From positions 670-64,669 of the forward strand of contig JAFRQS010000023.1 of assembly GCA_017428495.1 (NCBI GenBank): a DNA stretch of 64,000 bases. Direction: 5' to 3'. Numbering within the stretch: position 1 is the stretch's first letter; each line of letters begins with the position of its first letter. The notes under the pieces were generated by a model. It was not told where the DNA came from. It did not search any database and was given only the letters and a program-made list of their open reading frames with translations. Both the position numbers and the translations under genes were made by a program. This document shows positions 4,586 through 55,745 of the stretch, piece by piece. Source of the stretch: Bacilli bacterium. Its GTDB lineage: Bacteria; Bacillota_I; Bacilli_A; RF39; UBA660.

Positions 4586-6100
4586 ATGAAAAAGTTTTTA
4601 ATAAGTGTAATGTTACTATTATTAGTTGTTACAGTACGTGCTGAAGAAAAAGTAAATTTAAAATTAGAGTGGATACCTAATATGTATTATAGTTATAAAA
4701 AGGATGGTATGACATATTGGGGTCAATTTGCATATGCCTATGTGGATGGTAAGATAGCATATTGTCTAGATATATACCATCCTATAACTAAGTATGAGTA
4801 TACATCGACAAGTGAAATTCAGGAAAATAATTTGGTTATATTAGCAGGATATTTTGGATATGGATATAATGGTGAATATTTACTAAAAGATTATGTCGCT
4901 ACACAAAAACTAATATGGGAATATTTGGGTATGAATGTAAAAATAACTGCTGAAAGTGAAGGAAAAGGTAGGGAAATAGATTTGTATGATAATACTTTAA
5001 AAATAATAGAAAGAATAAATAGATATGCACTATTTCCAAGATTTGATAGTGACTTTATATTTGATTTAAATACAACAAATCAGTTAAATGATTTAAATGA
5101 AATAAGTGATAATTTCGATATAATAAATGAGTCATATAATAATATATATTCTATAGATAATAATGTAATATTTGAAGCATATGAAGTTGGTACAAATGAT
5201 TTTTATTTAAAAACCAAATATGATATGAATCATTCTAATATTATATTTGTAGCACCAGATTCCCAAAAAATAATGATTATTGGTGAAGTAAATAACTTAA
5301 CACAAAGATATTCTTATGAGGTGGTTGATTCTGATGATGAAACTCCAATAATAGAAGAAAATCCAATAATAGAGGAAGACCCAGTAGTAGTGGAAGACCC
5401 AATAATAGAGGAAGACCCAGTAATAGAAGAAGACTCAGTAATAGAAGAAGACCCAATAATAGAGGAAGATCCAATAATAGAGGAAGACCCAGTAGTAGAA
5501 GAAGACCCAATAATAGAGGAAGATCCAATAATAGAGGAAGACCCAGTAGTAGAAGAAGACCCAATAATAGAAGAAGATCCAGTAATAGAAGAGGATCCAG
5601 TAATAGAAGAGGATCCAGTAATAGAAGAGGATCCAGTAATAGAAGAGGATCCAGTAGTAGAAGAATACCCGATAATAGAGGAAGATCCAATAATAGAGGA
5701 AGATCCAGTAATAGAGGAAGACCCAATAATAGAAGAAGATCCAATAATAGAAGAAGATCCAGTAATAGAAGAAGATCCAGTAATAGAAGAGGATCCAATA
5801 ATAGAAGAAGATCCAGTAATAGAAGAAGATCCAGTAATAGAAGAGGATCCAGTAATAGAAGAGGATCCAATAATAGAGGAAGATCCAGTAATAGAAGAAG
5901 ATCCAGTAATAGAAGAGGATCCAGTAATAGAGGAAGATCCAGTAATAAAGGAAGATCCAGTAATGGAAGAAGAGAGTGTAAATATTGAAAATAGTGTGAA
6001 AATTTCAGAAAAAATAGATAAGTTACCATTTTTAGGGGTATATTATGAAAAAAATCTTAATATTTGCATTTATTTTATTAAATTTAACTGGATGTACTAA
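4586..6100 (+). CDS. Cys-Gln thioester-domain (TED) surface adhesin with acidic repeat stalk and LPFLG sorting-like motif
   Basis: Signal peptide; AYCLD (Cys at 4763), ATQKLIW motif, candidate reactive Gln in DSQKIMIIG (5264); 35 EEDPVI-type repeats; C-terminal KLPFLG; adjacent sortase. Confidence 0.75.
   Translation: MKKFLISVMLLLLVVTVRAEEKVNLKLEWIPNMYYSYKKDGMTYWGQFAYAYVDGKIAYCLDIYHPITKYEYTSTSEIQENNLVILAGYFGYGYNGEYLLKDYVATQKLIWEYLGMNVKITAESEGKGREIDLYDNTLKIIERINRYALFPRFDSDFIFDLNTTNQLNDLNEISDNFDIINESYNNIYSIDNNVIFEAYEVGTNDFYLKTKYDMNHSNIIFVAPDSQKIMIIGEVNNLTQRYSYEVVDSDDETPIIEENPIIEEDPVVVEDPIIEEDPVIEEDSVIEEDPIIEEDPIIEEDPVVEEDPIIEEDPIIEEDPVVEEDPIIEEDPVIEEDPVIEEDPVIEEDPVIEEDPVVEEYPIIEEDPIIEEDPVIEEDPIIEEDPIIEEDPVIEEDPVIEEDPIIEEDPVIEEDPVIEEDPVIEEDPIIEEDPVIEEDPVIEEDPVIEEDPVIKEDPVMEEESVNIENSVKISEKIDKLPFLGVYYEKNLNICIYFIKFNWMY
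5336..5965 (+). repeat. Coding tandem repeat, 35 x 18 bp (EEDP[V/I][I/V])
   Basis: Units read directly, e.g. GAAGAGGATCCAGTAATA; 630 bp total from DETPII to KEDPVM. Confidence 0.97.
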
Positions 6101-9144: not shown

Positions 9145-10113
9145 ATGAAATGGAAAATAGGTAGTGTAGAAATAAAAAATCAAGTAGTACTTGCACCTAT
9201 GGCAGGTATTTGTAATAGTGCTTTTAGAAGAATAATAAAAGAGATGGGTGCTGGTCTTATATATGCTGAGATGGTTAGTGATAAGGCAATAGTATATGAA
9301 AATAAAAAGACTACTGATATGCTATATATGACTGATTATGAAAGACCTATAAGTCAACAAATATTTGGTAGTGATATTACATCATTTGTAGAATCTGCAA
9401 GAATAGTATATGAAAAGATGAAACCTGATATTATAGATATAAATATGGGATGCCCTGTACCTAAAGTGGCAGTAGGCGCTCAGGCTGGAGCAGCATTATT
9501 AAAAAATCCAGAAAAAATATATGAGATAGTAAGTGCAGTAGTGAAAACAGTTCCTGTTCCAGTAACTGTTAAAATTAGAAGTGGATGGGATAAAGATCAT
9601 ATTAATGCTGTAGAAGTTGCACGTGTTTGTGAAAAAGCTGGTGCAAGTGCAATATGTGTACACCCAAGGACTAGAAATCAAAGATATGAAGGGTTATCTG
9701 ATTGGAATATTATAAAAGAAGTTAAAAGTAATGTAAGTATTCCTGTAATAGGTAACGGAGATATAAAAAGTATTTATGATGCTAAAAGAATGCTAGATGA
9801 AACAGGTTGTGATGCTGTTATGATAGGTAGAGCAGCATTGGGAAATCCCTGGTTAATAAAAGACATAGTGGAATATTTAGAAAATGGTAATGAATGTAAT
9901 GCTATTACAAAAGATGAAAAAATAGATATGTGTATTAAACATATGAATTATTTATTAGAATTTAAACCTGAGAAAACAGCAATACTCGAAATGAGAAGTC
10001 ATATTGCTTGGTATTTGAAAGGTTTAAATGGTTCGAATGATGTAAAAAGAGAAATATTTAAATCTACTACTAAAAAAGAAGTATTAGAAATATTGGAAAA
10101 ATTTAGATATTAA
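9145..10113 (+). CDS. dusB: tRNA-dihydrouridine synthase DusB
   Basis: LAPMAG, IDINMGCPVPKV, IGNGDI and VMIGRAALGNPW. Confidence 0.96.
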   Translation: MKWKIGSVEIKNQVVLAPMAGICNSAFRRIIKEMGAGLIYAEMVSDKAIVYENKKTTDMLYMTDYERPISQQIFGSDITSFVESARIVYEKMKPDIIDINMGCPVPKVAVGAQAGAALLKNPEKIYEIVSAVVKTVPVPVTVKIRSGWDKDHINAVEVARVCEKAGASAICVHPRTRNQRYEGLSDWNIIKEVKSNVSIPVIGNGDIKSIYDAKRMLDETGCDAVMIGRAALGNPWLIKDIVEYLENGNECNAITKDEKIDMCIKHMNYLLEFKPEKTAILEMRSHIAWYLKGLNGSNDVKREIFKSTTKKEVLEILEKFRY

Positions 10114-10174
10114 GGCTTTAATTTATTTACAAGCCTTATAAATTGGTATAAAATGGAGATAAGGAGTGTTATTT

Positions 10175-11650
10175 ATGCGTGAGTATACAGAACAAGAGCT
10201 AGTAAGAAGAGAAAAAGCAAGAAAATTGTTAGAAAGAGGTATAGATCCATTTGGCTCTAAATTTGATGTAACATCAGATTCAAAAACTATAAAAGAATTG
10301 TATGGTGAATGTACTAATGAAGAATTAGAAGAAAAAGATATTGAAGTATCTGTAGCTGGAAGAATTATGACAAAAAGAGGTAAGGGTAAAGCTGGATTTA
10401 TGCATATTCAAGATAAATATGGTCAAATTCAGATTTATGTAAAGCTTGATAATGTAGGTGAAGAAGAATATCAATTATTTGATATGGCAGATATTGGAGA
10501 TATAGTAGGTATTAAAGGTAAAGTTTTTAGAACTCATATGGGCGAATTAAGCGTTAAGGCTTTAGAATATATTCATTTATCAAAAGCATTAAGACCACTA
10601 CCAGAAAAATATCATGGTCTTACTGATGTAGAAGAAAGATTTAGAAGAAGATATGTAGACTTGATAATGAATGAAGATGCAAGAAGAATAGCATTTATGC
10701 GTCCTAAAATTATTAGAAGTATACAGGAATATCTTGATAGTAATGGATATGTAGAGGTAGAAACTCCTATTTTAGGTACTATTTTAGGTGGTGCTGCAGC
10801 AAGGCCATTTATTACTCATCATAATACATTAGATTTAGATATGTATTTGAGAATAGCTACTGAATTAAATTTAAAAAGATTATTAGTAGGTGGTATGGAT
10901 GCTGTATATGAAATAGGTAGATTGTTTAGAAATGAAGGTATGGATAGAAAACATAATCCTGAATTTACAACTGTTGAATTGTATAAAGCATATAGCGATT
11001 TAGATGGTATGAAAAAAGCTTGTGAAGATATATTTAGAAAATGTGTTTATGATGCTACTGGAAGTTATATTTTAAATTGGAAGGGTCATGAAATAGATTT
11101 TTCTAAGCCATTTAAGAGTGCTAAAATGGTAGATTTAATTAAAGAAAAAACAGGTATAGATTTTTATGAAAAGATGACATTAGATGAGGCTAAAAAATTA
11201 GCGGTTGAGCATAATGTAGTAGTAGAAGATCATTTTGAAGTGGGTCATATAATTAATGCATTTTTTGAAACATTTGTTGAAGAAACATTAGTTGAGCCTA
11301 CATTTGTATGTGAGTATCCTATAGAAGTAAGTCCTCTTGCAAAAAAATGTAAAGATGAAAGATTTACTCAAAGATTTGAGATATTTATTTGTGGTTCTGA
11401 ATATGGTAATGCTTTTACAGAATTAAATGATCCAATTGATCAAAGAGAAAGATTTGAAAACCAATTAAAAGAGAAGAATCTTGGTAATGATGAAGCTAAT
11501 GATATGGATGAAGATTATGTAGAAGCATTAGAGTATGGTATGCCACCTGCAGGTGGACTTGGTATTGGTATTGACAGACTTGTTATGATGATATCAGGAT
11601 CTGAAAATATACGTGAGGTAATTTTATTCCCACACATGAAAAATAAATAG
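10175..11650 (+). CDS. lysS: Lysine--tRNA ligase (class II)
   Basis: RFRRRYVDL, YLRIATEL, FRNEG and EYGMPPAGGLGIGIDRL; follows dusB as in Bacillus. Confidence 0.98.
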   Translation: MREYTEQELVRREKARKLLERGIDPFGSKFDVTSDSKTIKELYGECTNEELEEKDIEVSVAGRIMTKRGKGKAGFMHIQDKYGQIQIYVKLDNVGEEEYQLFDMADIGDIVGIKGKVFRTHMGELSVKALEYIHLSKALRPLPEKYHGLTDVEERFRRRYVDLIMNEDARRIAFMRPKIIRSIQEYLDSNGYVEVETPILGTILGGAAARPFITHHNTLDLDMYLRIATELNLKRLLVGGMDAVYEIGRLFRNEGMDRKHNPEFTTVELYKAYSDLDGMKKACEDIFRKCVYDATGSYILNWKGHEIDFSKPFKSAKMVDLIKEKTGIDFYEKMTLDEAKKLAVEHNVVVEDHFEVGHIINAFFETFVEETLVEPTFVCEYPIEVSPLAKKCKDERFTQRFEIFICGSEYGNAFTELNDPIDQRERFENQLKEKNLGNDEANDMDEDYVEALEYGMPPAGGLGIGIDRLVMMISGSENIREVILFPHMKNK

Positions 11651-11661
11651 AGGAGGTTTTT

Positions 11662-13032
11662 ATGAAAAACAAAAGTGTATTAAAAGCGTTTGGTATAATG
11701 TTATTTATAACATTTATATTGACATGGGTTGTTCCATCTTCAATAATTGGTGATGGAGTAACTATTGGAAAGATTGCGCCAACAGGTTGGGCTGATATTT
11801 TTACATCACTTGAAGTTGTTGCACAATATTTCTTGAAACCAGCAATATTTGTATTATTTGTTGGTATGTTTTATGGGGTGGCTAATAAGTCTGGAGCATT
11901 AAAAGGTTTAGTTGATTATTTAGTAGCAAAGTTTAAGAAAAGAAAAGCATTGTTTGTAATAGTAACAGTTTTATTCTATTCACTTGTTACAGCATTAACT
12001 GGAATATATTTCCAAATGTTTATGTTTATACCATTGTCAATAGCAGTACTTATTGGACTTAAATACAATAAAGTTCAAAGTATACTCGCAACAGTAGGCG
12101 CTAGTACTATTGGGTTATTAGCAGAAATATCTAATAGTATGATAAAAGCTATGGCTAGTACAAATGATAATCCATATTTATGGATAAAAGTACCATTATT
12201 AGTAGTATTAGTGGCTTTAACAATATTGTATATTCTTAAAGTTTCTCAAAAGAAAGATGAGAAAAAAGAAGATAGCATAATGTTTGTTCCACAAGCAAGA
12301 GATGCTAAGAAGAAGGTAAATGTAAAAGGTTTATCTTTAGCAATTGTTTTGTGTCTTACATTTGTTGTGTTTGTACTTGGTTTAACACCTTGGAGTAATG
12401 CAGATGTATTTAGTAAAGCATATACAGCAATTAAAAATGTAAAATTAGTTAACTTTAATGTATTTGATGCAATATTAGGTAAATTTGAAGTTTTTGGAAG
12501 TTGGACATATAATTCAATATATCCAACTATAGGGTTAGGCATTTTAGTACTTTCATTGTCAACACATTTATCATTAGGAGAATTGTTTGAAAGTGCTATT
12601 GAAGGTGCAAAAAAGGTAATGAGTTTAGCAATTCTTACTGCTTTAATGAGTCTAATAGTAATATTCTCTTTAAATTCAGGATTTGTAGGTACTATACTAA
12701 ATTCAATAGCTAAAAATGGAAATGTAGCTCTTGCTGCGATTGGTTCTATTGTAGGTGCACCATTTATGACAGAAGAAACTTATGCATTACAATATTTAAT
12801 GTCAACATTGTTCTATTCAGTGAATAAACAAGAATTATTAAGTTTATATGGATTAATAATTCAGACAACATATAATACAGTAATGTTAATAGCTCCATCA
12901 AGTATATTACTAATGATTGGACTTGCTTATGTTGAAGAAGGCTATTGTAAGTGGGTTAAATATATATGGAAATTTGTATTAGCAGTATTTGTGGCAACAT
13001 TAATTTCTATTACTGTAGCAACATTAATATAA
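11662..13032 (+). CDS. YfcC/DcuC-like multi-TM transporter
   Basis: About 12 hydrophobic segments; FILTWVVPS, FVLFVGMFYGVANKSGAL and YxKWVKYIWK resemble the YfcC family. Confidence 0.7.
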   Translation: MKNKSVLKAFGIMLFITFILTWVVPSSIIGDGVTIGKIAPTGWADIFTSLEVVAQYFLKPAIFVLFVGMFYGVANKSGALKGLVDYLVAKFKKRKALFVIVTVLFYSLVTALTGIYFQMFMFIPLSIAVLIGLKYNKVQSILATVGASTIGLLAEISNSMIKAMASTNDNPYLWIKVPLLVVLVALTILYILKVSQKKDEKKEDSIMFVPQARDAKKKVNVKGLSLAIVLCLTFVVFVLGLTPWSNADVFSKAYTAIKNVKLVNFNVFDAILGKFEVFGSWTYNSIYPTIGLGILVLSLSTHLSLGELFESAIEGAKKVMSLAILTALMSLIVIFSLNSGFVGTILNSIAKNGNVALAAIGSIVGAPFMTEETYALQYLMSTLFYSVNKQELLSLYGLIIQTTYNTVMLIAPSSILLMIGLAYVEEGYCKWVKYIWKFVLAVFVATLISITVATLI

Positions 13033-14474: not shown

Positions 14475-14500
14475 AATAGTGATTTAAATCACTATTTTTT
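14475..14500 (+). terminator. Rho-independent terminator
   Basis: AAAATAGTGAT-TTAA-ATCACTATTTT followed by Ts. Confidence 0.75.
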
Positions 14501-14501
14501 T

Positions 14502-14532
14502 GCATATAAAATACCTTTTAAACACATAATTA
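14502..14532 (+). promoter_or_regulatory. Putative sigma-G/F-type promoter for clpC
   Basis: GCATA-N18-CATAATT(A); no sigma-A -35 evident and no CtsR heptad repeat seen. Confidence 0.4.
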
Positions 14533-14549
14533 TATAGAAGGGAGATTAT

Positions 14550-16778
14550 ATGTTTCAAAAATTTGATGAGGAATCTAGAAAAGTATTGATATGTGCAAAA
14601 AGAGAAATGCAAAGTTTAAAACATGATTATATTGGAACAGAACATGTAATACTTGGTATTTTAAGTAATAATAATTGCATTACTGATATGCTTAAAAAGT
14701 ATGGTGTTAATTATGAGAATTTTAGAAATAAATTAATTGAGATAGTTGGAATTGGTAGTGTATCAAATGATTTGTATTTATATACTCCTTTATTAAAAAA
14801 AATAATAGAAAATGTAGTTGTTGAAGAAAGAGATAATGGTGGTGAAATATCATTGTCTAATATTTTTAATGGTATTATCTCTGAGGGTGATGGTGTTGGA
14901 ATAAGAATACTTTTAGAATTGAAAATAGATATAGATAAGTTATATGGTAATGTGATTAAAAATGTATCTAAGAAAAAACATAAAAAAAGTATTTTAGATG
15001 AATTAGGTGTTGATTTAAATTTAAAAGCTAAGAATGGATTGATTGATCCAGTCATAGGTAGAGAAAAAGAGATTAATAGAATGATTGAAATATTATGTAG
15101 AAGAACTAAAAATAATCCAATTTTAATAGGAGAAGCAGGAGTTGGTAAAACCGCTATTGTGGAATACTTATCAAAAAAAATTGTGGAGGGGAATGTTCCT
15201 GATATATTAAAAAATAAAAGAATTATTTCTTTAGATATGGCCTCTTCAGTTGCTGGTACTAAATATCGTGGTGAATTTGAAGAACGTATGAAAAAGGTTT
15301 TAGATGAGTTAGAAAATGATGAAGATATAATTATATTTATAGATGAAATACATACTATAATGGGTGCTGGTGGTGCAGAAGGAGCTATTGATGCTTCTAA
15401 TATATTTAAACCATCTTTAGCACGTGGTAAAATGAGATGCATTGGTGCAACTACTATTGATGAGTATAAAAAATATATAGAAAAGGACGGGGCGTTGGAT
15501 AGAAGATTTCAAAAATTAGAAATAAAAGAACCAAATGATTGTGAAATAAAGAATATACTTATGAATTTAAAAGATATATATAGCAAGCATCATAATGTTC
15601 TTGTAAATGATAAAATAATAAATAAAATAATTTTTTATTCTAAAAATTTTATAAAGTGTAGAAAAGAACCAGATAGGTCTATAGATATACTAGATGAAGT
15701 TTGTTCTAAAGTAGCATTAAAGAATAACAAAAAAGAAAAGAATATACTAAAATTAAAGAGTAAATTATCAACTGTAATAAAGAGTAAAGAAATATTAATC
15801 TCTAATAATAAATTTAAAGAGGCATATAAATTAAAAAAGTCTGAAGATAAAATGAATTCCATTTTAAATAAGTTGGAAATAGAAAATGCTAATATAATTA
15901 AATCTGTATCTGAAAATGATATTCTAGAAGTGATAAAATCTAAAGTTAATATTCCAATATTAAATATTGATGATAATTATTTAAATTATATTAAAAATTG
16001 TATAACAAAAAGAATAGTAGGGAATACTAATGCAATAAATGAAATATTAAAAATGTGCAAAGTTTTTAATAGAAATTATGATTGTTTATCATTGTTATTA
16101 TGTGGTAATAAAGGTCTTGGCAAATGTAGTGTAGCTAAATTATTTGCTGAGTTACTAGTGGGAAAAGATAATATAATTTATTTAGATACAAGTAGTATGT
16201 ATTCTGTTAATGCAATAAATAATAGTGGTATATTTAATGAAATAAAAAATAAATCTAGAGTTGTTATTATACTTGATGATATAGAGAAATGTAATAATGA
16301 TATATTAAATTTATTTATAGATGGATTAAAAAATGGAAGTTTTAAAGATTATAGTGGTAATGATATAAGTCTTAAAAATGTTATTATAATTATGATTGCT
16401 AATATAGATATAAGTAATAAATCATTTGGATTTTCTGATAAATCAAATGATAAATACTATTATTTAAATAGGAAATTTGGTAGGGATTTTATAGGTAGTA
16501 TAACTAAAATAATACAATTTGATAATTTAAATGAAAAGGAAAGAATTATGGTTGTTGATAAATACCTTAATAAATTAGAAGATAAATATAAAGTGAAGAT
16601 AATTTTATCTCTTGAAATAAAAAATAAAATTGTTGAGTCTATTAATTATGAAGGTGATACAACAAAAAATATATATAAAATTATTAGGGAAAGCATTGAA
16701 CCTATAATTATTGATAAATTATCGGCAGGTAATAGTGTTATTCATATTAATAGTTTAAATACTGTAAGGGTTGTTTAA
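14550..16778 (+). CDS. clpC: ClpC-family AAA+ chaperone with intact D1 and degenerate D2
   Basis: N-domain IGTEHVILG; D1 GEAGVGKT, GTKYRGEFE, IFIDEIH, ALDRRFQ; D2 GNKGLGKCS, ILDDIEK, no GYVG loop; lies between lysS and gltX. Confidence 0.9.
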   Translation: MFQKFDEESRKVLICAKREMQSLKHDYIGTEHVILGILSNNNCITDMLKKYGVNYENFRNKLIEIVGIGSVSNDLYLYTPLLKKIIENVVVEERDNGGEISLSNIFNGIISEGDGVGIRILLELKIDIDKLYGNVIKNVSKKKHKKSILDELGVDLNLKAKNGLIDPVIGREKEINRMIEILCRRTKNNPILIGEAGVGKTAIVEYLSKKIVEGNVPDILKNKRIISLDMASSVAGTKYRGEFEERMKKVLDELENDEDIIIFIDEIHTIMGAGGAEGAIDASNIFKPSLARGKMRCIGATTIDEYKKYIEKDGALDRRFQKLEIKEPNDCEIKNILMNLKDIYSKHHNVLVNDKIINKIIFYSKNFIKCRKEPDRSIDILDEVCSKVALKNNKKEKNILKLKSKLSTVIKSKEILISNNKFKEAYKLKKSEDKMNSILNKLEIENANIIKSVSENDILEVIKSKVNIPILNIDDNYLNYIKNCITKRIVGNTNAINEILKMCKVFNRNYDCLSLLLCGNKGLGKCSVAKLFAELLVGKDNIIYLDTSSMYSVNAINNSGIFNEIKNKSRVVIILDDIEKCNNDILNLFIDGLKNGSFKDYSGNDISLKNVIIIMIANIDISNKSFGFSDKSNDKYYYLNRKFGRDFIGSITKIIQFDNLNEKERIMVVDKYLNKLEDKYKVKIILSLEIKNKIVESINYEGDTTKNIYKIIRESIEPIIIDKLSAGNSVIHINSLNTVRVV

Positions 16779-16822
16779 ACTGTTTTTTTGTTTTATAATA
16801 ATTATGAATTTGGAGTGATTTT

Positions 16823-18472
16823 ATGAGTAATAAAGAATTAGCAGATTTAATATTTCCTAATATAACAAAAACTAGAGAAGATTATGAGAATATGTATCCA
16901 GTACGTGATTTGAAAGATGATGCTATAGTTACTAGATATGCACCTAGTCCAACAGGATTTATACATATTGGAGCATTACTTGCTTCATTTACTGAAAAAA
17001 CTTTTGCAAAACAATCTGGTGGTGTATTTTATTTAAGAATTGAAGATACAGATACTAAGAGAACTGTTGATAATGGTATTATGGAAATAATTAATGGTTT
17101 AAAAGAGTTTGAAGTTACTTTTGATGAAGGCCCTATTAATGAGAATGAGAGTATAGGTAATTATGGTCCATATATTCAAAGTGAAAGAAAAGAAATATAT
17201 CAAGCTTTTGTTAAGCATTTAATAAGTGAAGGAAAAGCTTATCCATGTTTTTGCACTCATGAAGAAATAGATGAAATAAGAAAAGAACAGGAAAGAGATA
17301 AATTACGTATTGGTTATTATGGTAATTATGCTAAATGTAGAAATTTAAGTAATGATGAGTGTGCAAGAAGAATAAAGAATGGTGATTCATTTATAATCAG
17401 ATTTAGATCTAATGGTGATTATAATAAGAAGATTATATGTCATGATGAAATAAAAGGAGATATATTATTCCCAGAAAATGATTTAGATATAGTTATAAAT
17501 AAAGCAGATGGCCTTCCTACTTATCATTTCGCACATTTAGTAGATGATCATTTGATGAGAACAACTCATGTAATAAGATCTGATGAATGGGTATCGAGTT
17601 TGCCGCTTCATTATCAATTGTTTGATGCCTTTGGTTTTAAAAGACCAAAATATGCTCATATTGCACCACTTGCTAAAGTGGATGAAGAAACTGGTGGAGT
17701 AAGAAAATTAAGTAAGAGAAAAGATCCAGAATGTGCAATGAGTTATTATCATAAGTTAGGTATACCATATGAGGCAGTAAGATTATATCTTGCTACTATA
17801 ACAAGCAGTGGTTTTGAAGAGTGGTATATACATAATCCAGATAGTAATATAGATGATTATAAATTTGAGTTTAAGAAAATTAGTAAGAGTCCATCATTAT
17901 TTGATTTGGATAAGTTAAATAATATATCTAGAAATTATATTAGTAGATTAAAAGCTACTGATTTGTATGATAAAGTTTCTAAATATTTAGAACAATATGA
18001 TAAAGAATTCTATGAAATATTTACTAAAGATAAGGAATATTCAACTAGTATATTGAATATTGAAAGAGAACAGAAGAAACCAAGAAAAGATATTGGATGT
18101 TATAGTGATGTTAGAAAAGAAATATGGTATATGTATGATTCATTATTTACTAATTTAAATTATGACTTTCAAAAAATAAATAATTTGGATGAAATAAGAA
18201 ATATTCTTGATATATACATTAATAAATATTATTCTTCATCTGATGATAAAGATACATGGTTTAATAAGATGAAAATGTTATGTGATGAACTTGGATATGC
18301 ATCTGATATGAAGGAGTATAAGGTTAATCCAGATAAATATAAGGGTAGTGTTGCAGATATCAGTATGGTTATAAGAGTATCGCTTACTACTAAGTCTATG
18401 ACACCTGATTTATATGAAATAATGAGAATTCTTGGTGAAGATAGAATAAGGGAAAGAATAAGCAAGATATAA
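16823..18472 (+). CDS. gltX: Glutamate--tRNA ligase
   Basis: TRYAPSPTGFIHIG, LRIEDTD, YPCFC and KLSKRK. Confidence 0.97.
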   Translation: MSNKELADLIFPNITKTREDYENMYPVRDLKDDAIVTRYAPSPTGFIHIGALLASFTEKTFAKQSGGVFYLRIEDTDTKRTVDNGIMEIINGLKEFEVTFDEGPINENESIGNYGPYIQSERKEIYQAFVKHLISEGKAYPCFCTHEEIDEIRKEQERDKLRIGYYGNYAKCRNLSNDECARRIKNGDSFIIRFRSNGDYNKKIICHDEIKGDILFPENDLDIVINKADGLPTYHFAHLVDDHLMRTTHVIRSDEWVSSLPLHYQLFDAFGFKRPKYAHIAPLAKVDEETGGVRKLSKRKDPECAMSYYHKLGIPYEAVRLYLATITSSGFEEWYIHNPDSNIDDYKFEFKKISKSPSLFDLDKLNNISRNYISRLKATDLYDKVSKYLEQYDKEFYEIFTKDKEYSTSILNIEREQKKPRKDIGCYSDVRKEIWYMYDSLFTNLNYDFQKINNLDEIRNILDIYINKYYSSSDDKDTWFNKMKMLCDELGYASDMKEYKVNPDKYKGSVADISMVIRVSLTTKSMTPDLYEIMRILGEDRIRERISKI

Positions 18473-18485
18473 TCTTGCTTTTATA
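18463..18485 (+). terminator. Rho-independent terminator
   Basis: AAGCAAGAT-ATA-ATCTTGCTT followed by Ts. Confidence 0.75.
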
Positions 18486-18524
18486 TTAAAAAAAAGATAC
18501 AATTATATTGTATTTGGAGGTATT

Positions 18525-18896
18525 ATGAAAAGAGATAATGAATTAGTTGAATTTATATTAGGAGTTGTTTTTTTAGCAGTAGGTTTATTTATGCTTAGTA
18601 AAAGAGTAATAGTATCTAGTGGATTTAGTATATTTTCAATTGGTAATTTTGATTTAACTACGGGTACTATAGTAATACCACTTATGATTGGAATAATTTT
18701 GCGTTTTGTATATCCAAAATCATTTATTCCTAAATTAATAGTAATACTAAGTTCTATATTTATAGTAGTTGCTATAATTATGAGTGTTAAATTGAGATTT
18801 GTACCTACGTCATTATTTGATTATTTATTAATAGTTGGACTTATAGCTGTTGGTACTGGACTATTATTAAAAACACTTACTAAAAAACAAAGCTAA
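18525..18896 (+). CDS. Hypothetical 4-TM membrane protein
   Basis: Good SD (GGAGGT); four hydrophobic segments. Confidence 0.8.
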   Translation: MKRDNELVEFILGVVFLAVGLFMLSKRVIVSSGFSIFSIGNFDLTTGTIVIPLMIGIILRFVYPKSFIPKLIVILSSIFIVVAIIMSVKLRFVPTSLFDYLLIVGLIAVGTGLLLKTLTKKQS

Positions 18897-18936
18897 CTTT
18901 GTTTTTTTTATGTTATAATGTTTTTAGGTGATTTAT

Positions 18937-19401
18937 ATGTATGAAATAGTAAATAAACTAATACAATTAAATAAAAGCATAAGTACTATGGAATCATGTA
19001 CTGGAGGATATATTGCTAATGCCATTACTAATGTACCTGGTGCTAGTGATATATTTATGTTTGGCGCTGTCACTTATTCAAATGAGTATAAGGTAAAGAT
19101 GGGAGTATCTTCATCTTTAATAGATAAATATAGTGTATATAGTATGGAAGTTGCTAATGATATGAGTAAGACCATATCTAATTATACTAATTCTGATTAT
19201 GGAATAGGTGTTACTGGTAAATTAAATAGAGTAGATAAAAATAATAATAGTGGAGAAAATAATGTTGTTTTTATAAGCATTTATGATAGGATTAATAATA
19301 AGTTTTATACTGATATTGTTACTGTTTTGTATGATGAGCGTTGTAAGAACAAGGAAATGGTTTTAGAAAGTATAAAAAAAATACTGGAGGAAATATTATG
19401 A
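18937..19401 (+). CDS. CinA C-terminal domain protein (PncC-like NMN deamidase)
   Basis: STMESCTGGYIA, GAVTYSNEYK and GIGVTG; no N-terminal MCF domain. Confidence 0.9.
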   Translation: MYEIVNKLIQLNKSISTMESCTGGYIANAITNVPGASDIFMFGAVTYSNEYKVKMGVSSSLIDKYSVYSMEVANDMSKTISNYTNSDYGIGVTGKLNRVDKNNNSGENNVVFISIYDRINNKFYTDIVTVLYDERCKNKEMVLESIKKILEEIL

Positions 19402-20795
19402 AAATATATAATACGTTGAGCAAAACTATAGAAGAATTTACACCTAATAATGGTAAAGAAGTAAATATGTATACTTGTGGGCCTACAGTTTATCATTTTG
19501 CTCATATTGGTAATTTGAGAACATATATATTTGAAGATGTATTAGAGAAAAGTTTAAACTTTCTTGGACATCACGTAAATAGAGTAATGAATATTACTGA
19601 TGTAGGTCATTTAAGTAGTGATGCAGATACTGGTGAAGATAAAATGCTTATGGGAGCAAAAAGGGAGCATAAGACAGTTTATGAAATAGCAGATTTTTAT
19701 ACTAAAGCATTTTTTAGTGATGCAAGTAAGTTAAATATTAAAAAACCAGATATTGTTTCTAAAGCATCTGATAATATTGATGAATATATCAAAATTATAA
19801 ATAAATTGTTAGAGACTGGATATGCATATAAGGCTGGTAATAATGTTTATTTTGATATCAGTAAAGCAAAAGATTATTATAAATTATCAGGTAAAAATGA
19901 AGAAGAATTAATAATTGGTGCTAGAGATGACGTAACAGAAGATACTGAAAAAAGAAACCCATATGATTTTGCACTTTGGTTCACTAAGTCAAAATTTGAT
20001 AATCAAGAAATGAAATGGGATAGTCCTTATGGAGTTGGATATCCTGGATGGCATATTGAGTGCTCTGGAATATCACTAAAATATTTAGGTGAATATTTAG
20101 ATATACATTGTGGAGGTGTTGATAATATATTTCCACATCATACTAATGAGATTGCACAATCTGAAGCTTATATTGGTCATAAGTGGTGTAATTATTGGAT
20201 ACATGGTGAACATTTGAATGATAAAAGTGGAAAGATGAGTAAGAGTAAAGGTGAATTTTTAACTGTTTCTTTATTACAAGAAAAAGGTTATAATCCTTTA
20301 AGTTATAGATTCATGTGTTTGCAATCTCACTATAGAAATCAGTTGGTATTTAGTTATGATTCATTAGATATAGCTGAAAGTGCCTATAATAAATTAAAAA
20401 ATAGGATTAAATCATTAGTTAAGAATAATGAAACATTAAATGATGAAAAAATAAAATATTATATAAATAGCTTTAAGGATGCTCTTAGTAATGATTTAAA
20501 TACATCTAATGCTTTAACAGTTTTATTTGAAGCTCTAAAAGATAATAATATTAATGATGATACTAAATTATATTTAGTAGAAGAGTTTGATAAAGTATTG
20601 TCATTGAGTTTAATAGAAAATAAAAAAGAAGCAGATAATGAATTAATTTATAAAATAAATAAACTAATTGAAGAAAGAAATAATGCTAAAAAAGATAAAA
20701 ATTATGAACTTGCTGATAAGATAAGAAATGATTTGTTAGAAATGAATGTAGTAATAAAAGATACTAGAGAAGGTACTATATTTGAAATAAGGTAG
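19398..20795 (+). CDS. cysS: Cysteine--tRNA ligase
   Basis: YTCGPTVY, HIGN, GYPGWHIEC, FPHHTNE and KMSKS. Confidence 0.98.
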   Translation: MKIYNTLSKTIEEFTPNNGKEVNMYTCGPTVYHFAHIGNLRTYIFEDVLEKSLNFLGHHVNRVMNITDVGHLSSDADTGEDKMLMGAKREHKTVYEIADFYTKAFFSDASKLNIKKPDIVSKASDNIDEYIKIINKLLETGYAYKAGNNVYFDISKAKDYYKLSGKNEEELIIGARDDVTEDTEKRNPYDFALWFTKSKFDNQEMKWDSPYGVGYPGWHIECSGISLKYLGEYLDIHCGGVDNIFPHHTNEIAQSEAYIGHKWCNYWIHGEHLNDKSGKMSKSKGEFLTVSLLQEKGYNPLSYRFMCLQSHYRNQLVFSYDSLDIAESAYNKLKNRIKSLVKNNETLNDEKIKYYINSFKDALSNDLNTSNALTVLFEALKDNNINDDTKLYLVEEFDKVLSLSLIENKKEADNELIYKINKLIEERNNAKKDKNYELADKIRNDLLEMNVVIKDTREGTIFEIR

Positions 20796-20803
20796 GTGAA
20801 AAT

Positions 20804-21472
20804 ATGGAATTGTTACTTATAATTATACCAATTATATTTATTATGTTATCTCAGTGGTACATTAATTCATCATATGCTAAGTATAATGAATATGAAGTTG
20901 CTAGTGGAAAAACGGGAGCTGAGGCCGCAAAGGAAATATTGGATGCTAATGGACTATCTAATGTGAAAATTGTTAAAATTGAAGGTACTTTAACTGATCA
21001 CTTTGATCCAAGAACTAATACAGTCAGTTTATCAAATGATATATATAGTGGATCTAGTGTTGCTGCTGTTGCTGTTGCTGCACATGAGTGTGGGCATGTA
21101 ATACAACATAAAGAAAAGTATGCACCAATTGTAATAAGGAGTGCATTAGTGCCAGTCGTAAATATAGCTTCTAAATTGGGTTATGCAATAATGGTTGCAG
21201 GAGTACTTGCATCAATATTTAATATGGCTCTTATTGGGTTGATATTGATGTGTGCAACTTTAATATTTCAACTAGTAACATTACCAACAGAATTTGATGC
21301 ATCAAATAGAGCAAAAAAACAATTGGTAAAATTAGGAATAATAACAAAAAAAGAATTATCAAATGTGTCAAGTATGTTATATGCTGCTGCTATGACGTAT
21401 CTTGCTTCTTTCTTTGCTAGTTTTGCTCAAATGTTAAGATTATTTTTACAAATAAATAGAAGAAATAATTAA
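20804..21472 (+). CDS. YugP-like membrane zinc metallopeptidase (Zn_peptidase_2)
   Basis: [20 protein letters not shown] and [12 protein letters not shown]. Confidence 0.93.
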
Positions 21473-22038
21473 AGAATTTTATCTATGATACCGTAAGATA
21501 ATGCTTCATCACTAGTCATGAAGTAATCTCTTTCGGTATCTTTTTCTATTTCTTCTATTTTTTTACTTGTATTTTTTGATAATATTTTATTCATTCTATT
21601 TCTAATTCTAAGTATTCTTTCTGCTGCAATTTTTATTTCAGTAGCTTGTCCTTCTGCACCTCCTAATGGTTGGTGGATCATCACTTCACTATTATTTAGT
21701 GCATATCGTTTACCTTTTTTTCCACTCGATAATAAGAATGCAGCCATAGAAGCAGCCATTCCTATACATATTGTACTTACATCACTTTTAATATAATTCA
21801 TTGTATCATATATAGCCATACCAGATGTTATAGATCCACCATTTGAATTTATATATATACATATATCATCATTATTTATTGAATCTAAATATAGCAATTC
21901 TGCAACAACTATATTTGCTAATTCATCATTTATTTCTCCTGATATAAATATAATCCTATCTTCTAATATTTTTGAATATAAATCATACACTCTTTCACTA
22001 TTATTTTTTTTCTCTATAACAGTAGGAATTAAATTCAT
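21469..22038 (-). CDS. clpP: ATP-dependent Clp protease proteolytic subunit
   Basis: YINSNGG, GMAASMA (Ser), MIHQPLGG (His) and ERDYFM. Confidence 0.97.
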
Positions 22039-22141
22039 AATATCACCTATAATTATAATAGGTATAAAGTTAAGTAAATATACACTATTATATGTGACAA
22101 AGTTTTTACTTATATGATATACTTATAGTAGGAGTGATAAT

Positions 22142-23770
22142 ATGGACAAAGTAAAAGTGTATTATAATAATAAGTTCTATGAGTATCCTAAAGGTATTAA
22201 ATTACTAGATGTTGCAAAAGATTTTCAAAAGGATTTTAAATATCCAATATTAGTAGGTATAGTTAATGAATACTCTGTAACTTTAGATTTTGAAATAAGA
22301 GAAGATTCAAAGGTAAAGTTTTATGATATATCATCATCTAAAGGTTTTAGAGCATATGAGAGAACAGCAATTCTTGTTTTAGTAAAAGCAGTGAGGGATA
22401 TATTGAATAAAGAAGTAAAAGTTGAACATTCTATAGATAGAGGCATATATTGCACAATAGATGGATTAAAAAAAGAAGATATTGATAATATTTCCAAAGA
22501 AATGCATGAACTAGTTGAAAGGGCTATTCCTATTGAAAAATTAAGCGTAAATAGATTAAAAGTAATTGAATATTTTAAAAAAATACATGATGATAATGCA
22601 AGTGTATTTAAGTACATGAGTAAGAATAATGTAACTTTATATAAAATAGATGGTATGTATGATTATATATTTGGTAAAGTATGTGTTAATACATCATATT
22701 TAAATAATTTTAAACTTGAATATATTGGTAATAATGGTTTTGTACTTATGCTACCATTTATATATGATAATATGAGAGTAAATGATTATACGCATCATGA
22801 AAAGTTTTTTAATTCAGTATTAGATTATATAAATTGGACTGATAAGATTGGTATTAAGTCATTTGTTGATTTAAATTTAAAAATATCTGAAGGCAAATGG
22901 AATGATATGGTATTTATGAGTGAAGCATCATATAATAAGTCATTACTTGATATAGTTGAAAAAATAGATGATAAAATTAAATTAATTTTAATAGCTGGTC
23001 CATCATCTTCTGGTAAAACTACAACTGCAAATAAATTGAAATTATTTTTAAGTGGAAGAGGATATAAACCGGTAATGCTATCGACTGATGACTATTTTAA
23101 GGAAAGAGATGAAACACCACTTGATGAGAATGGTAATAAAGATTATGAATCGGTAAATGCAATTGATATTGATTTATTTAATAAGCAATTGAAAGATTTA
23201 ATAGATGGTAAAGAGGTTACTATACCAACATTTAATTTTATAACTGGAAAAAAAGAATATAAGAAGAAATTACAATTGGATAAAGATGGAATATTAGTAA
23301 TAGAAGGTTTACATACATTAAATGATGTATTAACCGAATCTATTGAAAGAGATAAGAAATATAAAATTTATATTTCACCACTTACTGGTTTAAATGTGGA
23401 TGATCACAATAGATTAAATAGTACAGATAGTAGATTGCTTAGAAGGATGGTAAGAGATAATTTAACAAGAGGATATAATGCAAGTCATACGCTTTCAACA
23501 TGGGATAGTGTAAGAGCAGGGGAAACAAAGTATGTGTTCCCATATCAAGATGAAGCAGATATTGTTCTTAATACATCTTTGATATATGAATTGTGTGTAT
23601 TAAAAGTTTATGCAGAGCCATTACTATTCTCTGTTGATGAACTAGATCCATATTATAGTGAAGCAATTAGATTGATAGGTATATTGAAATTAATACTACC
23701 TATGCCAAGTGAAGGAATACCGCTTGATTCATTGCTAAGAGAGTTTATTGGTGGAAGTTGTTTTGAATAG
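22142..23770 (+). CDS. Nucleoside (uridine) kinase with N-terminal TGS/ThrRS-like domain
   Basis: [23 protein letters not shown] and LRRMVRD. Confidence 0.88.
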
Positions 23771-23778
23771 GAGGAAAT

Positions 23779-24780
23779 ATGATAAAAGTAGCAATTAATG
23801 GATTTGGAAGAATAGGAAGATTATGTTTTAGAGAAACATTTGGTACAAAAGAATTTGAAATAGTAGCAATAAATGATTTGACAGATGCTCATACATTGGC
23901 GCATTTGTTAAAATATGATTCTGCACAAAAAAGGTATGAAGGACATACAATAACTTATGATGATAATCATTTAATAGTTGATGGCAAAGCAATAAGAATA
24001 TATGCTGAGAAAGATCCTGTAAATTTACCTTGGAAGGAACTAGATGTTGACGTTGTATTTGAATGTACAGGATTCTTTACTAATAAAGATGATGCAATGT
24101 CACATATTAAAGCTGGCGCTAAGAAAGTTATTATTTCAGCACCTGCTAAGGGTGATGTTAAAACAATTGTATATGGGGTTAATGAAAATATATTAGATGG
24201 TAGTGAAGAAATTATTTCAGCTGCTTCTTGTACAACAAATTGTTTGGCACCACTTGCTAAGGTTATGAATGATAACTTTAAAATTAAATATGGTACTATG
24301 ACTACAATACATGCATATACAAATGATCAAAATACATTAGATGCACCTCATAGAAAGGGTGATTTAAGAAGGGCAAGAGCAGCAGCTGAGAATATTGTAC
24401 CTAATAGTACAGGCGCAGCTAAAGCTATTGGGCTTGTTATTCCAGAATTAGAAGGTAGATTAGATGGAAGTGCTCAAAGAGTACCAGTTGCGACGGGATC
24501 ATTAGTTGAGCTTACTTGTGTACTTGATAAAAAAGTTACAAAAGAAGAAATTAATGAAGTAATGAAGAATAATGCAAATGATACATTGGGGTATACAGAA
24601 GATGAAATAGTATCTAGTGATGTTATAGGTATTAGGTGGGGTTCATTATTTGATGCCACTCAAACAAAGGTAATATCTACTCCTGATGGTGATATGGTTA
24701 AAGTAGTTGCGTGGTATGATAATGAAATGAGTTATACTTGTCAGATGGTAAGAACTGCTAAATATTTAATGAATAGGTAA
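23779..24780 (+). CDS. gap: Type I glyceraldehyde-3-phosphate dehydrogenase
   Basis: [19 protein letters not shown] and WYDNE. Confidence 0.99.
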
Positions 24781-24804
24781 ATAAGTGCTAAGCACTTATT
24801 TTTC
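24781..24804 (+). terminator. Terminator separating gap from the pilin-pgk unit
   Basis: ATAAGTGC-TAA-GCACTTAT followed by Ts. Confidence 0.75.
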
Positions 24805-24854
24805 TTTGATTGTTTTATTCTACTATATGTGTTAAAATTATATTGGTGATGTAG

Positions 24855-25223
24855 ATGAAAAAAGGGTTTACTTTAATTGAAGTGACTGTTGTGATACTTT
24901 TGTTAGGAGTATTATCAATTTTTATAATTCCTAAGGTAACAACTACTATTGGTAATAATAAAGCTAAAGCTTGCGCAAGTATAGTGACAAGTGCGGAGGA
25001 AGCAGCAAAAGCGTATACTTATATGCATATAGAAACTATTGAAGAAGATATTGTATCTAATGGTTATTTTGATATTACAATAGGGGAATTACAAGATGAA
25101 GGTTTATTAAAAATGAATATAGAAAATCCATATGAAGAAGGTTATATTTCAACTTCTAATAATGTAAGAGTTACAAAAAATGGAAATAAATATATATACA
25201 CATATATGGGTGGTGAATGTTAA
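24855..25223 (+). CDS. Small type IV pilin/ComG-like prepilin
   Basis: MKKG/FTLIEVTVVILLLGVL class III signal; 122 aa; two Cys. Confidence 0.88.
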   Translation: MKKGFTLIEVTVVILLLGVLSIFIIPKVTTTIGNNKAKACASIVTSAEEAAKAYTYMHIETIEEDIVSNGYFDITIGELQDEGLLKMNIENPYEEGYISTSNNVRVTKNGNKYIYTYMGGEC

Positions 25224-31490: not shown

Positions 31491-31628
31491 ATGGATAGAG
31501 AAATTAAAACAGAATACGTTGATAAGCTTTTATCTCTAACAAAAGAAGAATTAGAGGGCATATTTAATGAATTGAGTTTATCTGAATTAGAAGACTTAAT
31601 ATCAAAAATAAACGAGGGGGTTGAATAG
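31491..31628 (+). CDS. Small hypothetical helical protein (45 aa), absent from the ORF track
   Basis: SD GAGGTG at ~31480; reads MDREIKTEYVDKLLSLTKEELEGIFNELSLSELEDLISKINEGVE*. Confidence 0.65.
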   Translation: MDREIKTEYVDKLLSLTKEELEGIFNELSLSELEDLISKINEGVE

Positions 31629-31629
31629 T

Positions 31630-33135
31630 GTGACAAAAAAGGAATTTAGTGAATATATAGAAAAAGCAATGGAAGAATGCAGAAGTATTTATAAAGAAAC
31701 GAAGAGTTATACTGAAAAGATGTATTCTAGTGCTATGAAAGAAAATATGAATAAATCAGCAATCGGTTTATATACATTAGAAAATGATCCTGAATATATG
31801 TATAACAAATATATGGAAAGATTAGCACTTTCTAAACTAGATAGATTATATTCTTTATTAAAAGAAGCTGCAAGAGAAAGAATGGAATCAATGTCCGATG
31901 AAGATATTGAAGAATATAGAGAAGAAAAACAAGCGGAGATTAGTGAAGAAATAAATAGAAAAATGCTTAAGTTTGAAGCACTAACAGATGAAATGGCTAG
32001 ATTAGTTATTAAAGATTCAATAGATGAACTTATAATTGAACAAAAAAGAGTTAGAACATGTGCTGTAGATGAAATTAAATCTTCTTTAATAGAAAAGTTA
32101 GGTATATCAAAGACTGTTTCAAATATAGCTCCGTTAGCAGATGATGAAGCTAAAGTATTGGCAAATATTTCTAGGGATAAAGAAACTCTAACAAGATTTT
32201 TTAAACTGCTAGAAGAATATAGAAATTTACAAAGTGATGTTAAGACAATTGGAATAGAAAGAGTTATAATTGCAAGAGATTTAATTCCATCAAATATGAA
32301 TTTCTCATTATCTGATATAAATGAAGAAGAATTATTTAGTGATGAAACTTTTGACAAAATTCAAAAACAAATATCTATCTATATTCAGAGTGCTGTTGAT
32401 GAAGAAACAGTTGAAAGCATGTATTTTTCAGATGGGGCAGAAGAAAGTTATTATGCATTAAAATCAACTAGTTATAAGTATTCAGATGAAATACCACATG
32501 ATGAAAAGGCATTAAAACACTTTAAATCAATAATAACAGATAGATTATATGAGCTTGCACAATTACAAAATCAAGAATGGGAAAGATTACATAACAAAAT
32601 GTTTAAAACCAATGAAACAACATCTAGAATAGCAAGTTTATCTTCTGAAATAGATGAAACAAAAGAGTTAATAAATCATTGTATAATAGAAAAATACAAG
32701 GAACATTATTCTAATAATGATATATATGGATCTATTTCTACAAGAATAAATGGCAAGTTGGAATATGCTTTAGGAAGAGAATCATTAGAAGATTTCTATA
32801 ATACAGGAATTTGGCCAACTAAAGAGCAGATAGATGCGCTTAAAAGAGCTAGAGAATTAAATAAGAAAGAAGCAGAAAAATGCGTTATAAGAGTTGAGGT
32901 TGCAAAGGAGAAATTCTCTGGATTACAAGAAAGAGCTTTAAATAATAAAAATGAAAAGATAGAACTAGTAAGAAAAGAAATGACAGATCTTGTTGGTAAT
33001 TGGGAAAATCCTACAATATTAAATATTATAAATAGTGGAATAAGAATTGATGAAAAACCAATAACCAAACCTGTTCAAGAAGAAAGTACAAATAAATTTA
33101 TCAATGAAACAGAAGAATTATTAATTGAAGATTAA
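31630..33135 (+). CDS. Hypothetical E/K-rich coiled-coil protein (~501 aa)
   Basis: Probable GTG start at 31630 after GAGGGGG; heptad-like helical composition; no signal peptide. Confidence 0.75.
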   Translation: MTKKEFSEYIEKAMEECRSIYKETKSYTEKMYSSAMKENMNKSAIGLYTLENDPEYMYNKYMERLALSKLDRLYSLLKEAARERMESMSDEDIEEYREEKQAEISEEINRKMLKFEALTDEMARLVIKDSIDELIIEQKRVRTCAVDEIKSSLIEKLGISKTVSNIAPLADDEAKVLANISRDKETLTRFFKLLEEYRNLQSDVKTIGIERVIIARDLIPSNMNFSLSDINEEELFSDETFDKIQKQISIYIQSAVDEETVESMYFSDGAEESYYALKSTSYKYSDEIPHDEKALKHFKSIITDRLYELAQLQNQEWERLHNKMFKTNETTSRIASLSSEIDETKELINHCIIEKYKEHYSNNDIYGSISTRINGKLEYALGRESLEDFYNTGIWPTKEQIDALKRARELNKKEAEKCVIRVEVAKEKFSGLQERALNNKNEKIELVRKEMTDLVGNWENPTILNIINSGIRIDEKPITKPVQEESTNKFINETEELLIED

Positions 33136-52769: not shown

Positions 52770-52770
52770 T

Positions 52771-53394
52771 ATGAAGAATAAAGAAGTAGTATCAGCAATA
52801 TTAGGAAGTGCATTTTTTGCTGTTCCTTATTTAGCTTTATCTACAGCACTTCTTCCAGCATTGGCAATTGGATGCGCTGCATTTGGAGCCAGTGAACTTG
52901 TTTTATCAGGTAATACAAAAGAAATACTTAAAGACTCAAATCGTCCTTTATATCTAAAATTACAAGATGCAAAAAAACAAAGTAAAGAGATATTGAATTT
53001 AATACCAAAAGTTGAAAGAGAAGAAACAAAATACAATTTGAAAGAAATACATAGTACTGTAGATAAAATTATAGAAGTAATTGAAAATAATCCTAAGAAA
53101 GCAAAAAGAATTGACAATTTCTTTGATTTCTATTTACCTGTATTAATAAAAATAGTAAATAGATATGATGAAGTAGAAAATAAAAATTTGACTTCTAAAG
53201 AAGGAAAAGACTTCATGAAAAAAGCTGATAAAATGATTGCAGATACAAATACTGCATTTAAAACTATTTTATCTTCTTTATATCAAAAGGATTTAATTGA
53301 TGCTGATGCTGATATGAAGGTATATGATATGATGTTGAAAGCAGATGGTATAGTTGATGATGAATTAATGAAAGGTAGTGATAAGGATGAATAA
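52771..53394 (+). CDS. XpaC-like (5-bromo-4-chloroindolyl phosphate hydrolysis family) protein
   Basis: Two N-terminal TMs; NPKKAKRIDNFFDFYLP and DADMKVYDMMLKADG; upstream of TelA. Confidence 0.85.
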   Translation: MKNKEVVSAILGSAFFAVPYLALSTALLPALAIGCAAFGASELVLSGNTKEILKDSNRPLYLKLQDAKKQSKEILNLIPKVEREETKYNLKEIHSTVDKIIEVIENNPKKAKRIDNFFDFYLPVLIKIVNRYDEVENKNLTSKEGKDFMKKADKMIADTNTAFKTILSSLYQKDLIDADADMKVYDMMLKADGIVDDELMKGSDKDE

Positions 53395-54586: not shown

Positions 54587-54587
54587 T

Positions 54588-55739: not shown

Positions 55740-55745
55740 GTTTAT

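Follow-up and report, generated by a model that had tools for sequence, protein, structure and literature searches.

Double-ring Hsp100 unfoldases are a main model for the division of labour between AAA+ rings: in ClpA the D2 ring accounts for 80-90% of ATP hydrolysis and is regarded as the principal unfoldase, and in ClpC the rings are tightly coupled. Degenerate AAA+ rings are familiar from other systems, such as D2 of NSF and D1 of Pex1/Pex6. NSF-D2 binds ATP, barely hydrolyses it and serves hexamerisation, D1 being the motor of NSF. The closest described relatives of the protein studied here are the ClpC proteins of Firmicutes (B. subtilis and S. aureus; structures 3J3S and 9RAI). We analysed a 64,000-nucleotide (nt) stretch of contig JAFRQS010000023.1 from an uncultured ruminant-gut Bacilli bacterium of the RF39/UBA660 lineage (GCA_017428495.1), hereafter the window, in which an open reading frame (ORF) of 742 amino acids is the organism's ClpC, as positional ortholog. 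It shares with Firmicute ClpC the order of two Clp_N repeats, D1, short M-domain and D2 with an xGF loop, as well as the lysS…clpC…gltX-cysS position, and its D1 is 55% identical. It differs from Firmicute ClpC in lacking the D2 motor residues, the D2 pore-1 loop, the second phospho-arginine (pArg) site of the N-domain, the adjoining ctsR-mcsA-mcsB genes and the CtsR box, and in a ClpP loop that is about six residues shorter. An earlier reading of the sequence alone (the original prediction) had described this gene as a single-motor ClpC with a dead D2 ring and a retained ClpP-docking loop, repurposed rather than decayed at random. Full-text literature searches, whose coverage was incomplete, returned no description of a ClpC combining a dead D2 with a retained ClpP loop.

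Motifs were read from alignments to B. subtilis ClpC and to 80 relatives (coordinates in Table 1). D1 is canonical in all motifs (Walker A GEAGVGKT, pore loop KYRG, Walker B IIFIDE, Arg fingers RR), and its catalytic and pore-loop residues are invariant in an alignment of 54 sequences. D2, in contrast with the D2 of Firmicute ClpC, is degenerate. Its Walker A reads GNKGLGKCS, in which Thr is replaced by Cys (codon TGT) and the P-loop Gly and Lys525 are retained. In Walker B, VIILDDIE, Asp577 (codon GAT) stands in place of the catalytic Glu, while Asp576 and Glu579 are retained, the latter being the 'allo-W' Glu named in the S. aureus ClpC structure paper (10.1101/2025.06.06.658286). The GYVG hairpin of the pore-1 loop is gone, leaving a gap of 11-14 residues relative to canonical ClpC. 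Except for the retention of Lys525, Asp576 and Glu579, these features of D1 and D2 had been described in the original prediction, and so had the loss of TEH in the second N-domain repeat, which indeed reads SLSN where repeat 1 retains GTEH. Two further losses were detected in D2. The NR of the Arg finger has become GS (its counterpart in S. aureus ClpC is R704, which closes the helix PEFINR), and the GAR of sensor 2 has become TTK (Thr-Thr-Lys). Sensor 1 is kept as Asn618, the equivalent of S. aureus ClpC N659. A D2 deprived of its catalytic Glu and Mg-binding Thr, of both the Arg finger and the sensor-2 Arg, and of its pore loop is therefore, to judge from these residues, very unlikely to be an ATP-hydrolysing and actively translocating ring.

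The ClpP-docking tripeptide is still there. FGF (residues 626-628), pointed out in the original prediction, falls in the alignment on the VGF of B. subtilis ClpC and the AGF of S. aureus ClpC, and in S. aureus ClpC the double substitution G672D/F673D abolishes ClpP binding (10.1101/2025.06.06.658286). The only invariant D2 columns in the 54-sequence alignment are G519, G524 and K525 of the P-loop and G627 and F628 of the ClpP loop. The GF pair is retained in 80 of 81 sequences, the exception being a sequence cut at a contig end. Within D2, protection is strongest at the P-loop Lys, which contacts nucleotide, and at the GF that docks ClpP.

The fold of D2 appears to be preserved in an AlphaFold2 model built with the 54-sequence alignment. 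The mean predicted local distance difference test score (pLDDT) is 84.9, with most of D2 at 82-91, and the modelled D2 has a confident five-strand AAA+ core (513-518, 542-546, 571-576, 611-617, 653-656) plus the lid. In the model, strand 542-546 runs into a short helical connection in place of the pore loop. The xGF loop has pLDDT values of 57-72 with FGF at its tip, low values that are as would be expected of a flexible docking loop. The top Foldseek matches were ClpC chains of MecA/ClpC/ClpP complexes, with template modelling (TM) scores of 0.74-0.77 over the full length. At the level of family profiles, Pfam detected Clp_N, AAA, AAA_lid_9 and AAA_2, the last one weakly (2e-11, on D2), and PF10431 was undetected in D2. 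No NCBIfam Hsp100 model reached its cut-off, the top one being TIGR02639 (ClpA) with 440 bits versus 993. When D2 was searched against the representatives of a 1.84-billion-protein library, a single match was obtained at E<=1e-30, namely its own 50% cluster, and the next-best matches were nearly all canonical.

We then consider how widely this protein occurs. Four contigs, which were assembled independently and come from different samples, encode the identical 742-residue protein, with 100% nt identity over up to 6.2 kb. Words of the clpC gene were found in 11 studies, which together contributed 20 metagenome runs of ruminant or gut origin. Metagenome contigs retrieved at 80% likeness mostly carried the conserved D1 of other organisms; an allele resembling that of the nearest relative (P0002, GCA_017388165.1), in which the pore-loop segment is replaced, co-occurs in another sample. 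Relatives were collected by a scan with one genome per species, which gave 80 loci, and a tree of 81 ClpCs was built from the N-domain, D1 and M-domain only. It places the ClpC of the window, with good support, in a clade that unites 62 sequences of uncultured gut Bacilli, whose metagenome-assembled genomes are labelled Bacilli, Erysipelotrichaceae, Tenericutes, Candidatus Coprosoma, Clostridium sp. CAG:1193 and CAG:594. All six D2 features are intact in most members of this gut clade, and a degenerate D2 appears in three places: clade (a), which includes the window, clade (b), and the singleton P0009.

Clade (a) has eight members (support 99) and displays a graded decay of D2. L032 (CAG:1193) has lost sensor 2 only, and L002 has lost the Arg finger; the contig of L003 stops short of the regions for the Arg finger and sensor 2, neither of which can be read there. 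In L004 and P0004 the pore loop and sensor 2 are additionally gone, and in L001, P0002 and the window almost every D2 feature has disappeared. The two taxa closest to the window thus share the dead D2, which speaks against strain-specific decay. Since the basal members of clade (a) keep D2 motifs that are largely intact (Walker A and B, pore loop and sensor 1), the loss was gradual, and for the same reason we rejected the idea that all degenerate ClpCs go back to one ancestral loss. At least three related taxa have the trait in a fixed state, and the order of loss was Arg finger and sensor 2, then pore loop, then Walker motifs. The Glu to Asp change in the D2 Walker B is ancestral to the window, P0002 and L001. 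Across these three taxa Walker A reads GKC, GKS or GKY and Walker B reads DD, ND or DG, the window having GKC and DD. We had considered the NSF-like 'DD' as a selected feature, and rejected this idea as a general claim, given the ND and DG found in the sister taxa.

Clade (b) comprises 11 members (support 100) around Clostridium sp. CAG:594. Like the ClpC of the window, these proteins have lost the D2 Walker-B Glu together with the Arg finger and sensor 2, and their genes are followed within a few kb by clpP; most members are also without sensor 1. Walker B has the form [DE]N[FY]x, GKT is mostly kept, and the P-loop Lys and xGF are kept. Unlike in the window, however, the D2 pore loop of clade (b) is highly conserved, with the TTAGYxGY segment inside LIGTTAGYxGYDNKNN (for example in L052 at 10001-12241, and in L061, L064 and L047). 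Clade (b), keeping the pore loop and mostly GKT, therefore represents a separate route to a non-hydrolysing D2, which could be a passive gripping ring. Parsimony on the D1-based tree gave minima of at least three losses for the Walker-B Glu, four for Walker A and two for the pore loop.

The selection acting on each domain was estimated from nonsynonymous (dN) and synonymous (dS) substitutions, with omega = dN/dS computed by NG86 with codon bootstrap, a simple counting method applied here to a very AT-rich genome. The genes flanking clpC are nearly identical between the window and P0002 (gltX 97%, cysS 98%, clpP 99%, PRK and gap 100% identity; omega 0.03-0.14). Within clpC, D1 is 93% identical to that of P0002 and D2 66%. 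The dN values were 0.031 for D1, 0.196 for D2 and 0.017 for gltX, with comparable dS (0.25-0.41). Omega was 0.09-0.13 for D1, whereas for D2 it reached 0.47 against P0002 (95% interval 0.33-0.70; 0.13 for D1 in the same comparison). Against L001 it was 0.56-0.61 for D2, a value which, like other deeper comparisons including those of the lid subdomain, is unreliable given the extreme AT bias and saturation. The reading frame has nevertheless been held open. In neutral simulations, 157 random D2 substitutions, as separate the window from P0002, left the frame open in 0.02% of cases (P≈0.0002), and 241 substitutions, as separate it from L001, in 0 of 5000. All indels among the window, P0002 and L001 are in frame. 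The divergence of D2 relative to D1 rises from 1.27 for canonical ClpCs to 1.54 for those gut-clade members whose D2 is intact, and to 2.5 for each of the two degenerate clades. With an omega interval below 1 and a frame held open, D2 is therefore strongly relaxed without being a pseudogene tail. Weakened purifying selection acts on it and it is kept as an in-frame domain.

The presumed partner of this ClpC is encoded 4.7 kb downstream, the distance given in the original prediction, by an intact clpP gene on the opposite strand. The Ser, His and Asp catalytic contexts are readable in its translation, and the gene is strongly constrained, with omega 0.03 at 99% identity to the sister strain. 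Among 86 loci, a clpP no more than 10 kb away from clpC was found in no others than those of the two clades containing degenerate-D2 ClpCs. Shared ancestry alone may account for this proximity, but it does show that ClpP is retained where D2 is dead. In one of the clade (b) loci, L052, the ClpP match comes in two pieces, and a frameshift or a gap is possible there.

We lean, with reserve, towards the view that this is a D1-driven ClpC in which a non-hydrolysing D2 ring would serve assembly and ClpP docking. In such a protein the classic-clade D1 ring alone would supply ATP-driven unfolding and threading, and the HCLR-type D2 would be a passive ring aiding hexamer assembly and docking ClpP through FGF. 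This D2 may still bind nucleotide, by analogy with NSF-D2 and its similar Walker B. The expected outcome would be a low-power ClpCP protease for unstructured or adaptor-delivered substrates. The loss of the second pArg site, together with the lack of mcsA and mcsB next to clpC across the clade, suggests that substrates would be delivered otherwise than by phospho-arginine tagging. A broader proposal, which we advance as a possibility and with less confidence, is that the gut Bacilli clade repeatedly evolved a true single-motor ClpCP, in which D1 powers unfolding and delivery through a non-hydrolysing D2; in the window D2 would then be a non-gripping collar for assembly and ClpP docking.

Several observations weigh against a working D1-driven protease. 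The ClpA D2 is the principal motor, with about 83% of hydrolysis, and ClpA with an inactive D2 cannot process many substrates (PMC7568338). The activity of S. aureus ClpC is abolished once a hexamer contains more than one ATPase-dead subunit (10.1101/2025.06.06.658286), which implies a tight coupling between the rings, so that a D1-only ClpCP may be very weak. The lid of D2 shows omega values of about 1.0-1.4 in deeper comparisons, which alignment error and saturation may inflate. The differing Walker A and B replacements of the sister taxa argue against conserved nucleotide binding, and a specific mode of binding nucleotide is not conserved. An expression search gave one run of undefined type, with only two 151-nt contigs on D2. 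The strong relaxation of D2, whose dN is six times the value for D1 and 11 times the value for gltX, and the gradual course of the loss weigh against a tightly 'repurposed' domain. The claim of repurposing instead of random decay was consequently sustained in part. The sharing of the dead D2 by the two nearest relatives, its omega, the open frame and the retained Lys and GF stand in its favour; the strong relaxation, the nearly neutral lid and the gradual loss do not.

Since the ClpA and S. aureus results cut against a vigorous D1-only protease, the main rival is vestigial decay, an explanation that we consider unlikely, though to be taken seriously. Proteolysis by ClpC would have become dispensable, with ClpX, Lon or FtsH covering for it, and what the N-domain and D1 retained would be a role independent of ClpP, such as that of a chaperone, holdase or regulator, perhaps during sporulation. 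D2 would be a C-terminal scaffold tolerated for folding or oligomerisation, and the xGF an uneroded remnant. The excess of D2 over D1 and gltX in dN, the lid omega near 1, the variety of catalytic-site replacements among sister taxa and the stepwise loss, which resembles progressive erosion, speak for such decay. However, GF survives in every complete degenerate D2, over three independent loss lineages, when most other D2 positions are variable. A three-residue motif should erode under simple drift, and its invariance argues against decay of this kind. So do the whole-D2 omega interval, which excludes 1, the absence of stops and frameshifts despite 157-241 substitutions, and a strongly constrained clpP that stays near clpC.

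It is also conceivable, if improbable, that the protein regulates ClpP without threading substrates, FGF docking serving to open or occupy the ClpP pore (as an activator, a gate-opener or a decoy versus ClpX). A docking loop kept beside a deleted D2 pore loop fits this idea, and in ClpA the inactivation of modules prevents neither docking on ClpP nor the opening of its pore to peptides that are then cleaved (PMC7568338). A gate-opener, however, would have no need of a canonical D1 with KYRG under such strong purifying selection, and the AGYxGY pore loop kept by clade (b) despite its dead Walker B points to continued substrate passage. Mixed hexamers, with the dead-D2 ClpC as a modulatory subunit beside an intact ClpC- or ClpE-type paralog encoded elsewhere in the genome, seem very improbable. 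No second Hsp100 was found in the window or in the gut-clade loci screened, the gene occupies the conserved clpC position, and more than one dead subunit poisons the S. aureus hexamer, as mentioned above. An assembly or sequencing error, or a recent strain-specific pseudogene, can be dismissed in view of the four identical assemblies, the many metagenomes, the two further taxa, the full-length frame and the neutral simulations. A tblastn search with an approximate ClpX seed, a core segment, gave no match in the window or in the 86 loci.

The D1-driven ClpC that we favour can be compared with three systems. NSF also carries a degenerate second ring (1NSF, 1D2N), whose Walker B reads VVVDDIER in 1NSF against VIILDDIEK in the window. 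Unlike the D2 of the window, NSF-D2 belongs to the classic clade and has a canonical GKT P-loop, and NSF has no peptidase partner. The likeness of the D2 studied here to an NSF-D2-like non-hydrolysing ring is a functional analogy, resting on the P-loop Lys and the DD match, and not a homology class. The ClpM encoded by apicomplexan plastids has lost its D1 motifs and its ClpP-binding site and kept D2, which according to the authors carries the critical function (10.64898/2026.05.20.726455). ClpM resembles the present case in being a ClpC-family protein of a reduced, AT-rich genome with one degenerate ring, and is its mirror image. The third system is a laboratory variant of ClpA, with D1 active and D2 inactive, that still docks ClpP and opens its pore (PMC7568338), like the state proposed here. 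That variant keeps the D2 pore loops and ATP binding and fails on many folded substrates, whereas the natural protein has its pore loop deleted and is maintained by selection.

Natural D2-dead ClpCs, which arose in at least three independent lineages and by two routes, with and without the pore loop, are test objects for this division of labour. They allow one to ask what the D1 ring can do on its own, what a minimal ClpP-docking ring is, and whether binding without hydrolysis is enough for assembly. If the D1-driven protein is real, it is a natural counter-example to D2 as the indispensable main motor of ClpA/ClpC-type proteases. If D2 is instead a decaying remnant, the gene is still a clean case of domain-wise relaxation within one gene. 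The finding also bears on the proteostasis of reduced-genome gut bacteria.

Table 1. Coordinates of clpC, its domains and motifs, its leader and clpP in the window, and loci cited by handle
Feature	Position	Strand	Remarks
clpC	14550..16778	+	order Clp_N, D1, M-domain, degenerate D2
N-domain, two Clp_N repeats	14550..14984	+	PF02861 1.6e-13, 2 stretches; aligned to the ClpC N-terminal domain
D1 AAA+ module	14997..15779	+	compared with B. subtilis ClpC
D1 Walker A	15129-15152	+
D1 pore loop	15261-15272	+
D1 Walker B	15330-15347	+
D1 Arg fingers	15501-15506	+
M-domain, short ClpC-type coiled coil	15729..15890	+	helices 394-418 and 422-447 (model); aligned to the ClpC M-domain
D2 AAA+ module	15990..16775	+	fold retained, ATPase motifs degenerate
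D2 Walker A	16104..16130	+
D2 pore-1 loop deletion site	16191..16229	+
D2 Walker B	16263..16286	+
D2 sensor-1 Asn	16401..16403	+
FGF, ClpP-docking tripeptide	16425..16433	+
D2 Arg-finger position	16494..16499	+
D2 sensor-2 position	16659..16667	+
Hairpin and T-run	14476..14501	+	ATAGTGATTTAAATCACTAT then T7
clpC leader	14502..14549	+	GCATA 14502-14506, 18-nt spacer, CATAATT 14525-14531, ribosome-binding site GGGAG 14540-14544
clpP, intact	21469..22038	-	TIGR00493 4.9e-88
Clade (b) loci	L041-L047, L052, L061, L064, L069, L079
clpP 3-5 kb downstream of clpC, opposite strand	L001, L032, L047, L052, L061, L064, L069, L079, L081-L083, window

The gene order around clpC is dusB-lysS…clpC-gltX…cysS, clpC lying between lysS and gltX/cysS as in Firmicutes. 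Upstream are dusB, lysS, a DcuC/YfcC-like transporter and a prepilin-type protein; downstream are gltX, a small membrane protein, a CinA-domain protein, cysS, a Zn-peptidase and clpP. The usual flanks of Firmicute clpC, ctsR-mcsA-mcsB and radA, are not found at the clpC locus of the window. In tblastn searches, Halobacillus CtsR, McsA and McsB seeds gave no match in the 64-kb window or at any gut-clade locus, whereas the same seeds matched next to clpC in 16-21 outgroup loci. The absence of ctsR-mcsA-mcsB upstream and the full length of the ORF agree with the original prediction.

The hairpin and T-run listed in Table 1 terminate the upstream prepilin-like gene, and clpC therefore has its own leader. 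No CtsR heptad repeat or operator was found in this leader. Its GCATA and CATAATT blocks are kept in the sister taxon L001 (6210-6262), where the spacer between them has diverged. By their sequence the two blocks might represent a candidate forespore promoter of the sigmaG/F type. In B. subtilis, MdfA is reportedly a forespore-specific adaptor of ClpC.

The divergence between the window and the sister strain GCA_017388165.1 is mosaic along this region (14979-24919 of the window, L082 1-11821), with 89% nt identity over clpC-gltX-orf123 and 98% from cinA on. The switch falls at a 1.9-kb insertion, found in the sister strain only, that encodes a 578-residue Flg_new/NAGPA surface protein. This suggests that recombination took place there.

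The window as a whole has a GC content of about 26% and a strong GC skew. Four of its ORFs (47505-49688, 31621-33135, 53378-54586 and 60931-61938, encoding 727, 504, 402 and 335 residues) have no Pfam family at E<=1e-5. A cluster at 51156-57314, unrelated to Clp, encodes a solute-binding/VWA protein, two proteins without family match, TelA and a 522-residue ATPase with AAA and AAA_lid_6 domains (55746-57314). At the left end, a 5'-open ORF (3-1757) encodes a repetitive surface-type protein rich in Cys and in Gly/Ser/Thr, with a Big_2-like start; its GC content of 35% is well above that of the rest of the window. A secreted protein of 504 residues (4586-6100) carries an acidic tandem array of about 40 copies of P-[IV]-[IV]-E-E-D.

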